This document shows, in pieces, positions 72 through 510 of a stretch of DNA of 43,500 nt (the stretch's first letter is position 1; every line of letters starts with the position of its first letter). Both the position numbers and the translations under genes were made by a program. Under the pieces are notes generated by a model. It did not search any database and was not told where the DNA came from. It saw only the letters and a list, made by a program, of their open reading frames with translations. The stretch is from Escherichia coli. Its GTDB lineage: Bacteria; Pseudomonadota; Gammaproteobacteria; Enterobacterales; Enterobacteriaceae. The stretch is from the NCBI RefSeq assembly GCF_003334255.1, contig NZ_QOWU01000047.1; one strand, written 5' to 3'.

Positions 72-122
72 GATACTGCGCTGGATACTACAAACTACTT
101 CCACCGAACCCACCGTCATTAG

Positions 123-139
123 TGGTGGGTCGTGCAGGA
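123..139 (-). repeat. 17-nt fragment identical to the 3' end of tRNA-Lys (tggtgggtcgtgcagga) inside the tRNA spacer
   Basis: Exact match to the first 17 nt of the Lys tRNA genes at 221-237 and 511-527, followed by unrelated sequence. Confidence 0.8.
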
Positions 140-220
140 TGACTCGCTTCGCTCGCCCTACGGGCCGTTGCTGACGCAACGTTATCCTACACGCTTAACA
201 TCTGTCTTCGATGTTAAAAC

Positions 221-296
221 TGGTGGGTCGTGCAGGATTCGAACCTGCGACCAATTGATTAAAAGTCAACTGCTCTACCAACTGAGCTAACGACCC
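221..296 (-). tRNA. lysW: tRNA-Lys (anticodon UUU)
   Basis: 76-nt sequence whose reverse complement is the canonical E. coli tRNA-Lys (GGGTCGTTAGCTCAGTTGG...CCACCA); anticodon region gattaaaagtc on plus strand. Confidence 0.95.
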
Positions 297-299
297 GAG

Positions 300-375
300 T
301 GGTGGGTGATGACGGGATCGAACCGCCGACCCCCTCCTTGTAAGGGAGGTGCTCTCCCAGCTGAGCTAATCACCC
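300..375 (-). tRNA. valT: tRNA-Val (anticodon UAC)
   Basis: 76-nt sequence whose reverse complement is the canonical tRNA-Val(UAC) with encoded CCA; 3 nt from the neighbouring Lys gene. Confidence 0.95.
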
Positions 376-410
376 GATACTACGCTGGATACTACAACTA
401 ACTATGTTAG

Positions 411-427
411 TGGTGGGTCGTGCAGGA
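411..427 (-). repeat. Second 17-nt tRNA-Lys 3'-end fragment in the tRNA spacer
   Basis: Same 17-mer tggtgggtcgtgcagga as at 123-139; the surrounding spacers 72-220 and 376-510 are homologous to each other. Confidence 0.8.
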
Positions 428-510
428 TGACTCGACTTCGTCTCGCCCTTCTGGCCGTTGCTCATGCAACGTTATCCTTCACGTTTTACTACCGCTTCCA
501 CCTTAGCGAT

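Follow-up and report, generated by a model that had tools for sequence, protein, structure and literature searches.

Two tRNA-linked repeats in the Lys-Val spacers of the lysT tRNA operon of Escherichia coli

Two spacers of an Escherichia coli tRNA operon each contain a copy of the 3' terminus of the tRNA gene that precedes them, which raises the question of what these spacers are and whether the copied fragment does anything. The DNA analyzed (the window) is a stretch of 43,500 nucleotides from contig NZ_QOWU01000047.1. Its start lies inside the lysT-valT-lysW-valZ-lysYZQ tRNA operon, which is transcribed on the minus strand (ARAGORN and Rfam calls) and holds five of the six tRNA-Lys genes (as counted by PMC4176162). 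The features discussed below are collected in Table 1.

Table 1. Features at the start of the window, in order of position. RF00391 scores are those of alignments that also take in the upstream tRNA-Lys body.
Feature	Positions	Strand	Basis
tRNA-Val(UAC), valZ, cut at window edge	1..71	-	Rfam tRNA 56.9 bits, truncated at 3' end
valZ leader, 51 nt	72..122	-	Alignment with TLR-less alleles
TLR2, lysW-valZ spacer	123..220	-	RF00391 54.9 bits; MFE; missing as 98-bp unit in JJ1886 and BL21(DE3)
TLR2 18-nt tail	123-140	-	Exact match to tRNA-Lys 3' end
TLR2 hairpin 3 with extension	143-155	-	Element anatomy
TLR2 hairpin 2	156-164	-	Element anatomy
TLR2 hairpin 1	166-181	-	Element anatomy
TLR2 5' arm, CGTGTAGGAT	184-193	-	Element anatomy
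TLR2 linker hairpin	about 196-218	-	Element anatomy
tRNA-Lys(UUU), lysW	221..296	-	ARAGORN and Rfam
tRNA-Val(UAC), valT	300..375	-	ARAGORN and Rfam
valT leader, 35 nt	376..410	-	JJ1886 alignment; sole spacer remainder in TLR-less strains
TLR1, lysT-valT spacer: 27-nt linker, 5' arm, core, 18-nt tail	411..510	-	RF00391 50.4 bits; missing as 100-bp unit in JJ1886
TLR1 tail, 18-nt tRNA-Lys 3'-end copy (T-loop A59 to CCA)	411..428	-	Exact match
TLR1 hairpin 3 (GACGAAGTC), GA/GA flanks, enclosing C-G pair (C = base 445)	431..444	-	5/6 helix pairs changed on both sides across family
TLR1 hairpin 2 region, GCCAGAAGGGC	445..455	-	Family alignment
TLR1 hairpin 1, CGTTGC-ATGA-GCAACG	456..471	-	Stem 100% paired and almost without variation across 33 family members; detected as stem
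TLR1 5' arm, CGTGAAGGAT; pairs with tail segment ATCCTGCACG, one A/G mismatch	474..483	-	MFE folds; own-tail duplex specificity; closing-helix covariation
tRNA-Lys(UUU), lysT, first gene of operon	511..586	-	ARAGORN; Rfam tRNA 79.2 bits; lysT position in annotated E. coli and K-12 records

Spacer homology and family identity

A preliminary description of this DNA placed the long spacers at 376-510 (135 nt) and 72-220 (149 nt), and the ARAGORN and Rfam gene calls give the same limits. It also held that the two spacers are homologous, and this was borne out by pairwise alignment, which gave 83% mean column identity with one 16-nt indel. The homology is a mosaic: core and tail (~74 nt together) can be aligned, as can the terminal ~28 nt (tRNA-Val leader), but no alignment is possible over the ~27 nt that follow each tRNA-Lys. 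The shared fragment had been described as the 17-mer TGGTGGGTCGTGCAGGA, the reverse complement of the tRNA-Lys 3' end (...TCCTGCACGACCCACCA), which has four exact occurrences, at 123, 221, 411, and 511 (0.01 matches expected; 0 of 100 shuffles reached four). The exact copy in both spacers stands, but its length needed correction: the true identity is 18 nt (ATCCTGCACGACCCACCA on the transcribed strand), and the match to tRNA-Lys is lost at the 19th base.

We consider it almost certain that each spacer holds one tRNA-linked repeat (TLR; the RtT family of Rfam), these being copies 1 and 2 (TLR1 and TLR2) of the five TLRs of the lysT operon. According to PMC8144298, the family was described in 1978 (Egan and Landy) and catalogued in 1999 (Rudd), and K-12 has 22 copies at ten loci, with one to five per locus. 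The hallmark of TLRs is that their last 18 to 19 bp repeat exactly the 3' terminus of the upstream tRNA or rRNA; they are stated to have no known function, and the repeat was proposed by the authors as an RNase E recognition element (PMC8144298). Both elements studied here begin 1 nt after a tRNA-Lys gene (TLR1 after lysT and TLR2 after lysW), lie on the minus strand like the tRNA, and end in an exact 18-nt copy of its 3' terminus. Both score above the gathering score of 45 for Rfam model RF00391 (“RtT”), which finds matches after all five tRNA-Lys genes of the complete operon, but the bit scores overstate the structural fit of the Lys copies because the alignments recruit the tRNA-Lys body as the 5' half of the model, with a 44-nt insert and several noncanonical pairs. 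True homology is limited to the 3' ~70 nt. The canonical tyrT elements share the core with TLR1 and TLR2, including the motif GRCCCGNAGGGYGA, a hairpin 1 that is 100% paired, and a covarying hairpin 3, and their terminal 19 nt equal the 3' end of tRNA-Tyr. On the family alignment, core homology to the tyrT RtT elements and the tail rule both hold, in effect a test that the identity has passed.

The spacer finding is real but ordinary, the family being already known. It is a rediscovery of repeats known since 1978, catalogued in 1999, modeled in Rfam, and partly annotated by the NCBI pipeline, and as such it adds little. Annotation by Rfam and PGAP is confined to the terminal copy, which bears a misleading “processed from tyrT transcript” note, and the Rfam matches on the intergenic copies overlap tRNA genes.

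Structure and distribution of the elements

The TLRs of this operon follow one plan: after a short linker come a 5' arm of 10 nt, the conserved core, and a tail of 18 nt. Contained in the core are the hairpin CGTTGC/GCAACG, the motif G(G/A)CCCGNAGGG(C/T)GA, and a variable hairpin that covaries and is closed through tandem G-A; the core ends in GAGT(C/A). The tail is the same in sequence as the T-loop-to-CCA stretch of the upstream tRNA, and the arm pairs with the tail's first ~10 nt, leaving ACCCACCA single stranded. In the complete operon, TLR1 resembles TLR4 and TLR2 resembles TLR3. In TLR1, base 452 (A in the RNA) replaces a family-invariant C, which breaks one pair of hairpin 2 (pair 36-40: C-G in 32 members and other in 1).

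Minimum free energy (MFE) folds contained the closing helix between arm and tail in all four intergenic Lys copies; in TLR2 this helix had 10 bp, and the z score of the spacer was -4.4. Arms preferred the tail of their own class: mean duplex energies for own versus other tails were -12.1 versus -5.9 to -8.7 kcal/mol for Lys elements, -18.7 versus -7.2 to -13.0 kcal/mol for Tyr elements, and -16.7 versus -7.7 to -12.9 kcal/mol for Arg elements. Mapped onto the family alignment (33 members), the whole structure had 93.9% of cells paired, compared with 32 to 51% in slid controls, and both bases had changed in eleven pairs, of which the closing helix and hairpin 3 contributed five each. The pattern shows that the conserved partner of the tail is the element's own 5' arm and that the closing helix covaries with host tRNA identity, with the covariation drawn from about three independent classes (Lys, Tyr, and Arg). 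Pro-linked elements have a closing helix of only 6 to 7 bp. Instead of being kept up by selection, the complementarity of arm and tail could also go back to an origin of the element from tRNA (acceptor 5' strand with the 5' strand of the T stem). Given a core-only alignment, RNAalifold proposed the pairing AGG(39-41)/CCU(68-70) instead of hairpin 2 and the closing helix; these pairs are invariant, and the proposal is indistinguishable from our model. Covariation is confined to the closing helix and hairpin 3. The arm-tail helix, conserved and tracking host tRNA identity, is amenable to compensatory mutagenesis.

The TLR core was found behind tRNA-Lys, tRNA-Tyr, tRNA-Arg, and tRNA-Pro genes in more than 15 genera. 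Our genome scan returned about 65 core matches with a same-strand tRNA no more than 400 nt upstream, in Enterobacterales and a few other Gammaproteobacteria, and in most of them the tail was an exact 18- to 19-nt copy of the upstream tRNA (Lys, Tyr, Arg-ACG/CCG, or Pro-CGG/UGG). Some of the tRNA-Pro-linked elements had no neighboring tRNA detected at the locus. In several Enterobacterales loci, a related core is followed by what we take to be the 3' end of 5S rRNA, and no 5S gene was located there. A TLR is present in the equivalent Lys-Val spacer of Citrobacter werkmanii (L013), and Lys-operon TLRs are present in Pluralibacter gergoviae (L095 and L097). Alcanivorax sp. 24 has a related core in dispersed 76-nt repeats that are not linked to tRNA genes. 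An Rfam scan of look-alikes from Alcanivorax, Salinicola, a Pseudomonas MAG, and Holophagaceae gave no RtT match at an E value of ≤0.01.

Natural absence, transcript fate, and alternative readings

E. coli ST131 strain JJ1886 lacks all five TLRs and keeps all seven tRNAs; alignment confirmed that TLR1 and TLR2 are precisely deleted, and the absence of the others was judged from spacer length plus zero RtT matches. BL21(DE3) is without TLR2 and TLR5 and FDN-9 is without TLR3, with all tRNAs intact in both strains. The deletion breakpoints fall within the 18-bp repeat. Among 5,426 complete E. coli genomes, a TLR1-specific 49-mer had matches in 3,548 (65%) and a TLR2-specific 49-mer had matches in 2,310 (43%); these megablast counts can miss diverged copies, so the absence frequencies are upper bounds. 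The presence of TLRs in C. werkmanii and P. gergoviae suggests that the E. coli absences are losses. The tRNA 3' end and the tail form 18-bp direct repeats, and recombination or slippage between them excises a TLR precisely with the tRNA left intact; TLRs are thus polymorphic for presence and nonessential. TLR1 and TLR2 are dispensable, as their natural, precise absence from lineages that keep the tRNAs demonstrates. The lysT operons of K-12 (five TLRs), BL21(DE3) (three), and ST131 JJ1886 (none) provide natural, isogenic-like contrasts and thus a handle on tRNA-Lys/Val maturation.

The lysT spacers are part of a polycistronic transcript and are cut internally by RNase E when RNase P is inactive; in the published model they are 3' trailers of 2 to 150 nt, and Northern blots with spacer probes detected the polycistronic lysT transcript and intermediates, with no discrete TLR RNA reported (PMC4176162). 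Combining this literature with the anatomy of the elements, we infer that a TLR would be cotranscribed in the ~1.1-kb precursor, that the RNase P cut at the 5' end of the next tRNA would leave it as the 3' trailer of pre-tRNA-Lys, and that RNase E, cleaving near CCA, and/or 3' exonucleases would then take off the trailer. The tail may serve as a second tRNA-like 3'-end determinant, either an RNase E site or an exonuclease stop, a proposal for which we see about even odds and which was made previously only for the 5S-linked members of the family (PMC8144298). Such a role would leave any released TLR RNA with a CCA terminus, and the arm-tail helix would keep the real tRNA 3' end free of competition from the tail. 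Taken as a whole, the reading that combines TLR identity, element anatomy, trailer fate, a role for the tail, and repeat-driven excision is the best explanation of the spacers, and we put its probability at roughly 0.9.

The preliminary description took the fragment for a footprint of the duplications that built the operon, and part of this stands, in that lys-spacer-val units were duplicated within the operon. The fragment is more than a scar, however: it is the defining terminal module of TLR/RtT elements, and the same core lies behind tRNA-Tyr, tRNA-Arg, and tRNA-Pro genes, each time with the 18- to 19-nt 3' end of its own tRNA. We therefore regard as very improbable the simple version in which each spacer is what decay has left of a formerly complete tRNA-Lys gene from the tandem duplications. 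The clear paralogy of the lys-spacer-val units, with TLR1 paired to TLR4 and TLR2 to TLR3, agrees with it, and so does the resemblance of the 5' arm to a fusion of the acceptor 5'-strand end with the 5' strand of the T stem (CGT+GCAGG versus the observed CGTGAAGG), so that some tRNA ancestry of the flanks is possible. A decayed gene is nevertheless hard to reconcile with a ~50-nt core common to elements at those other tRNAs, with elements behind tRNA-Pro genes where no neighboring tRNA was detected, with the lack of any tRNA-like remainder in the spacers by ARAGORN or the Rfam tRNA model, or with a tail that is 100% identical over 18 nt while the adjoining sequence is unrelated to tRNA. The relic of a mobile or integrative element, inserted site-specifically into the T-loop-to-3'-end segment in the manner of an att site or as a miniature element targeting the conserved T-loop, would account for filled and empty sites that differ by the element plus one 18-bp repeat copy, with breakpoints exactly at the repeat. 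That repeat starts in the conserved T-loop (A)ATCC, and integrases that target tRNA genes commonly use the segment from T-loop to 3' end; in long-form members GGTTCGA immediately adjoins the core on its 5' side, so that the core looks inserted between TTCGA and ATCC, and the Alcanivorax repeats show a related core dispersed away from tRNA genes. We still think such an origin unlikely, since the elements have no integrase or other coding capacity and no true phage match, one core occupies at least five different targets, unlike the case of a site-specific integrase, the outgroup elements make the empty sites of E. coli look like losses, and direct-repeat recombination explains the polymorphism without mobility. 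A phage or island att remnant was rejected as an identity for the spacers (the repeats are only 80 to 82 nt apart, with no ORFs other than short, nonconserved ones); a search of a phage collection gave four matches, namely, three contigs of Salmonella genomes and a short Salmonella phage record without annotation, each with no more than 43% query cover. Also rejected were a tRNA gene or pseudogene (no ARAGORN gene and no Rfam tRNA match even at an E value of ≤10) and a small, tpr-like protein gene, the only ATG ORF (31 amino acids, 370-465, minus strand) being owed to the ATGA loop variant of TLR1; the loops of TLR2 to TLR4 are GTCA, GCCA, or GTTA and contain no ATG. No terminator-like site (GC-rich hairpin plus U-run) was present on the minus strand in positions 1-800, and no promoter was found inside the spacers on the transcribed strand.

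The remaining alternatives concern function. The preliminary description had suggested that the fragment could pair with tRNA-Lys 5' regions and influence processing. Such pairing is thermodynamically possible: constrained folds gave isoenergetic swapped and native conformers (-67.4 versus -67.3 kcal/mol for lysW plus TLR2 and -61.2 versus -61.1 kcal/mol for lysT plus TLR1), and the swapped conformer, in which the tail is paired to the tRNA body and the TLR arm to the native 3' end, is the unconstrained MFE structure. The conserved partner indicated by covariation is nonetheless the element's own arm, and a required influence on processing is unlikely because TLR1 and TLR2 are precisely absent from E. 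coli lineages that retain all of their tRNAs. We give little credence to a cis-acting modulator in which tail and authentic tRNA-Lys 3' end would vie for pairing with the 5' acceptor and T-stem strands, so that processing by RNase P or RNase E would be gated. Transcription yields the native tRNA first, and it can fold before there is any tail; JJ1886 lacks both TLRs and BL21(DE3) lacks TLR2 with all tRNA genes retained; and since five of the six tRNA-Lys genes (as counted by PMC4176162) lie in this operon and yet TLR-less strains exist, TLRs cannot be required. Whole-precursor MFE folds, which mispaired tRNA-Lys and differed between the two precursors, were unstable and uninformative for this reading. 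Trans action, with the excised ~100-nt TLR RNA as a stable regulator or sponge like RrA/RrB/RrF or 3'ETS-leuZ, likewise seems improbable. The structure is well folded and covarying, the tyrT member accumulates as the 171-nt RttR RNA annotated in K-12, 5S-linked TLRs undergo processing and bind in vitro to Hfq and CsrA (PMC8144298), and RtT RNAs were scored as differentially expressed in Klebsiella pneumoniae RNA-seq data (PMC4147364); on the other side, 19 tRNA-linked TLRs scored below 0.01 for CsrA binding and the original rtT phenotype was retracted (PMC8144298), no discrete spacer RNA was reported from the lysT operon (PMC4176162), and TLRs are missing from a large fraction of E. coli genomes. 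Finally, TLRs might be selected mimics of the tRNA acceptor/T-arm “top half,” possibly decoys or insulators of enzymes that read tRNA 3' ends, a reading that we hold to be doubtful as a whole. The 5' arm, as the end of an acceptor 5' strand plus a T-stem 5' strand, would pair with the copied host 3' end, the three-hairpin core would replace the T-loop, and the arm would coevolve with the host tRNA (Lys, Tyr, or Arg). Since tail and true 3' end are the same sequence, the precursor could toggle between the two isoenergetic conformers; the enzymes affected could be RNase E, P, T, or PH, the CCA-adding enzyme, or RelA/the ribosome, and the dispersed Alcanivorax repeats would point to a mobile origin of the core.

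Relation to known elements

The RtT RNA (rttR) of the tyrT-tyrV operon, the subject of RF00391, was reportedly described by Bosl and Kersten in 1991. It has in common with the Lys copies the hairpin CGTTGC/GCAACG, GRCCCGNAGGGYGA, the variable hairpin, GAGT[AC], the arm-tail closing helix, and a tail that copies the tRNA 3' end through CCA. The Lys copies differ from it in being a short form without the ~40-nt segment GAGAAGCTTCGACCAAGGTTCGACTCGAGCG...AGCGAGAG, in a tail and arm that are specific to tRNA-Lys (18 nt) rather than tRNA-Tyr (19 nt), in RF00391 scores of 50 to 55 bits (inflated by the tRNA body) against 133 to 137 bits, and in their position between tRNA genes as opposed to a 178-bp tandem array. 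The attL and attR sites of integrases that use tRNA 3' ends are likewise direct repeats from T-loop to 3' end that flank an insert and allow precise excision with the tRNA restored, but the TLR insert is only 80 to 82 nt, has no integrase, and carries the same core at many tRNAs, and no phage or island homology was found. The 3'ETS-leuZ sponge is also a spacer RNA excised from a tRNA precursor during maturation; unlike the Lys TLRs, it has no tRNA 3'-end copy and acts by base pairing to sRNAs.

RrA, RrB, and RrF, the 5S-linked TLR sRNAs of rrnA, rrnB, and rrnD, belong to the same family, have an 18-bp tail that copies the 3' end of the upstream stable RNA, and are processed from a precursor; they differ in lying between two terminators and in carrying GGA motifs that bind CsrA and Hfq in vitro, whereas the tRNA-linked TLRs are predicted not to bind CsrA (PMC8144298). 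As for the K-12 TLRs of Egan and Landy (1978) and Rudd (1999), which are summarized in PMC8144298, the Lys copies belong to that family and show no substantive difference, and we infer the one-to-one naming with the Rudd 1999 catalogue. Like TLR1 and TLR2, the K-12 elements lie directly downstream of a tRNA in a tRNA operon, with 18-bp 3'-end identity and several copies per locus, and the five of the lysT operon equal the maximum per locus given in that text.

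Identity of the repeats in the Lys spacers

The 17-mer that the preliminary description had placed in both long spacers of the lysT-valT-lysW-valZ-lysYZQ tRNA operon was recovered: there are four exact matches, two at real tRNA-Lys 3' ends and one in each spacer, against a chance expectation of 0.01. The identity to the tRNA-Lys 3' end is exact, but the copy measures 18 nt rather than 17 (ATCCTGCACGACCCACCA on the transcribed strand) and spans the T-loop, the 3' strand of the T-stem, the 3' strand of the acceptor stem, the discriminator base, and CCA. The homology claimed for the two spacers also held (83% identity in the alignment, with a 16-nt indel). 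This homology is a mosaic: a block of ~74 nt ending in the copied tRNA 3' end (the "tail") aligns, as do the last ~28 nt (the tRNA-Val leader), and no alignment between the two spacers was found over the ~27 nt directly 3' of each tRNA-Lys. Bases 1 to 586 of the window show 99.9% identity to E. coli.

Layout of the tRNA operon at the start of the window, in transcript order
Feature	Coordinates	Strand	Remark
lysT	586..511	-	first gene in transcript order
lysT-valT spacer	510..376	-	135 nt
TLR1	510..411	-	
valT	375..300	-	then 3 nt before lysW
lysW	296..221	-	
lysW-valZ spacer	220..72	-	149 nt
TLR2	220..123	-	
valZ	71..1	-	cut by window edge

In an Rfam scan, both spacers matched RF00391 (RtT RNA), with 54.9 and 50.4 bits versus a curated threshold of 45, and in the complete operon of another strain an RtT element follows all five tRNA-Lys genes (46.7 to 60 bits). 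The canonical members lie in the tyrT-tyrV locus, whose four units score 133 to 137 bits and each end in the last 19 nt of tRNA-Tyr. [quoted passage not shown] The spacer finding is a correct rediscovery of this already known family. TLRs go unmentioned in a detailed processing study of the lysT operon (PMC4176162).

The RF00391 matches on the intergenic Lys copies (123-289 and 411-579, minus strand) overlap the tRNA-Lys gene and contain a 44-nt insert as well as mismatched pairs, an artifact of a model built on the long tyrT form; in these alignments, Rfam wrongly fits the body of tRNA-Lys to the 5' half of the model. The NCBI pipeline labels only the last of the five Lys-operon elements, as "RtT sRNA"; at one such locus (L001, 831-956), PGAP names the terminal copy only and notes it as "processed from tyrT transcript," an incorrect label in the lysT operon.

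Predicted fold and arm-tail pairing

TLRs occur in two forms. The short form, represented by the Lys intergenic copies (both window copies included) and the Arg copies, runs from a 5' arm through hairpin 1 (CGTTGC-loop-GCAACG) and G(G/A)CCC-GNA-GGG(C/T) to GA, a variable hairpin 3, GAGT(C/A), and the tail. The long form (Tyr, Pro, and terminal Lys copies) has ~40 nt extra between arm and hairpin 1, containing a T-arm-like NNAGGTTCGA. In MFE folds of the four intergenic Lys spacers, (C)GUG(A/U)AGGAU paired with AUCCUGCAC(G) as the closing element in all four cases, and Lys spacer z-scores were -2.7 to -4.4. The arm favors its own tail in the Lys class (mean duplex energy of -12.1 kcal/mol versus -5.9 to -8.7 kcal/mol with the tails of other classes), the Tyr class (-18.7 versus -7.2 to -13.0 kcal/mol), and the Arg class (-16.7 versus -7.7 to -12.9 kcal/mol). 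The arm showed no own-tail preference in the Pro class, where only GAGGAU/AUCCUC is kept.

In an alignment of arm, core, and tail (n = 33; long-form arms were picked by position before GAGAA, not by complementarity), a four-helix model left 93.9% of cells paired, compared to 32 to 51% with partners slid. Eleven pairs changed on both sides; five of them belong to hairpin 3 and another five to that half of the closing helix which is tRNA specific, for which the tRNA classes provide only about three independent comparisons. Hairpins 1 and 2 show virtually no variation and so argue neither for nor against the fold; an alternative pairing from RNAalifold is invariant too. The arm resembles a fusion of the end of the acceptor 5' strand with the 5' strand of the T-stem, and arm-tail complementarity might be inherited from a tRNA-like origin.

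At window position 452 (T on the plus strand, A in RNA), TLR1 has GGCCAGAAGGGC versus GGCCCGAAGGGC in 32 of the 33 aligned members; the otherwise 99.9%-identical E. coli AR_0011 also has GGCCCGAAGGGC at this site. The change removes one of three C-G pairs in hairpin 2 and could be a rare variant or a sequencing error. A 31-aa ATG ORF (MSNGQKGETKSSHPARPTTNIVSCSIQRSIG; 370-465, minus strand) running from TLR1 into the valT leader recalls tpr, the "protamine-like" CDS inside the K-12 tyrT TLR; it needs the ATGA loop of TLR1, is not present in TLR2 to TLR4, and is therefore probably spurious.

Distribution across tRNAs and natural deletions

We scanned ~100,000 species genomes with a 19-nt core pattern. 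Among the matches listed, true elements were found in Escherichia, Citrobacter, Enterobacter, Klebsiella, Superficieibacter, Pluralibacter, Siccibacter, Erwinia, Rahnella, Edwardsiella, Budvicia, Moellerella, Acerihabitans, Gilliamella, Marinobacterium, and a Nevskiales MAG; the scan also drew chance matches in GC-rich coding DNA. About 65 core matches, again among those listed, have a same-strand tRNA within 400 nt upstream, and most of these carry, just past the core, an exact 18- to 19-nt copy of that tRNA's 3' end. This rule was obeyed by Lys-UUU, Tyr-GUA, Arg-ACG or Arg-CCG, and Pro-CGG or Pro-UGG. It also held at tRNA-Pro loci with no neighboring tRNA detected, indicating that the tail is not a by-product of building a multicopy operon. 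TLR-like cores followed by AACTGCCAGGCAT, apparently the 5S rRNA 3' end, are probably the published rrA/rrB/rrF elements (L051, L065, L116, L118, and L119, from Superficieibacter, Budvicia, and Siccibacter).

At two Citrobacter loci (L014, near the core match at 416-434, and L042, near 1060-1078; both minus strand), a tRNA-Tyr body (anticodon arm, variable arm, and then AGGTTCGA) stands directly before the TLR core, with a diverged tail (ATCCTTACCGCTATAG); each resembles a hybrid of tRNA-Tyr and TLR, or a tRNA whose T-loop houses the core. Outside the Gammaproteobacteria, a Holophagaceae MAG (L009, 8545-8600, plus strand) carries a core-like GCGACGGCCCGCAGGGCGA-GGGCCATCGGCCC-GAGTCA with no tRNA within 400 nt upstream, which may be chance or a distant relative.

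The lysT operon is structurally polymorphic in E. coli, with five TLRs in K-12, four in FDN-9, three in BL21(DE3), and none in the ST131 strain JJ1886; the breakpoints fall in the 18-bp repeat. FDN-9 lacks TLR3 (98 bp), and the tRNA 3' end is joined straight to the post-tail sequence; in BL21(DE3), TLR2 is absent, and the RtT scan matched only TLR1, TLR3, and TLR4. The JJ1886 operon gave zero RtT matches in the Rfam scan and has spacers of 35, 51, 48, and 33 nt, with all seven tRNAs kept; aligned to the window, it is missing TLR1 (100 bp) and TLR2 (98 bp), with the gap boundaries placed precisely at the 18-bp repeat. A TLR1-specific 49-mer matched 3548 of 5426 complete E. coli genomes (65%) and a TLR2-specific one in 2310 (43%), counts that are lower bounds on presence, as megablast requires a 28-nt exact word. 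TLRs occupy the same Lys-Val spacer in Citrobacter werkmanii and the Lys operon in Pluralibacter gergoviae; thus, the economical reading of the E. coli absences is loss by direct-repeat recombination or slippage. A functional operon does not require TLRs in highly successful lineages.

In E. coli IH5 (L127), the locus stops after lysT and continues as the yrdA-yrdB-aroE region, which suggests a chromosomal rearrangement with a breakpoint inside the tRNA operon. Upstream of the operon in BL21(DE3) and JJ1886, at the pal-cpoB junction, Rfam matches the CpoB/ybgF intercistronic RNA thermometer (RF02782, 142 to 154 bits; L125, 2592-2730, and L126, 2492-2630, minus strand).

Processing and origin of the element

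According to the processing study (PMC4176162), RNase P does most of the separation of the ~1.1-kb operon transcript, starting from the 3' end, and leaves pre-tRNA-Lys trailers of up to 150 nt; its authors proposed that RNase II and PNPase remove these trailers, followed by RNase T, and with RNase P inactive, RNase E cuts inside the four long spacers. These trailers are the TLRs. The 10-bp closing helix, with its 8-nt ACCCACCA overhang, would be an obstacle to 3' exonucleases, and the duplicated tRNA 3' end could offer a second site for the same end-forming activities; the authors of the 5S-TLR work proposed a second-site role for RNase E (PMC8144298).

Pairing of the tail with tRNA-Lys 5' regions, suggested in the preliminary description as an influence on processing, is predicted to be possible. 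In a swapped conformer (123-296 and 411-586, minus strand), the tail is the pairing partner of the tRNA body, and the arm that of the true 3' end. This is the unconstrained MFE of tRNA-Lys plus TLR, and it lies within 0.1 kcal/mol of the native fold (-67.4 versus -67.3 and -61.2 versus -61.1 kcal/mol) because tail and true 3' end are identical; transcription order favors the native fold. A required processing role in cis is contradicted by the natural TLR deletions, which are a near-equivalent of the deletion check proposed for that role and in which all tRNA genes are kept. A trans-acting sRNA role of tRNA-linked TLRs found no support; processing and in vitro binding of Hfq and CsrA have been shown for only the three 5S-linked TLRs (PMC8144298).

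The repeats had also been read as a footprint of operon-building duplications. The observation and the spacer homology stand, but a plain duplication scar is contradicted by the occurrence of the same core at other tRNAs. The filled/empty signature and the T-loop boundaries are consistent with a mobile or att-like origin, as is a related core in dispersed repeats of Alcanivorax sp. 24 that are not tRNA linked; against such an origin stand the lack of an integrase, the many targets for one core, and the lack of evidence of gain. Of possible interest to specialists are a closing helix that tracks the host tRNA, the isoenergetic swap, and the natural TLR-plus/TLR-minus operons.

The Alcanivorax sp. 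24 repeats (L067 to L087) are 76 nt long, dispersed and tandem, and read AAAAAATTGCCGGGAGCAATTTTTAACGTTGC..GCGACGGCCCGAAGGGTGA-hairpin-TCAT, with the TLR core architecture but not beside tRNAs. Repeats of the same kind occur in Salinicola (L089) and a Pseudomonas MAG (L100), and repeats of this type matched no Rfam family at an E value of ≤0.01. Together with the likening of rtT to a BIME-like cluster by Naville and Gautheret in 2010 (PMC2965389), they may be a hint that the core had a mobile origin.
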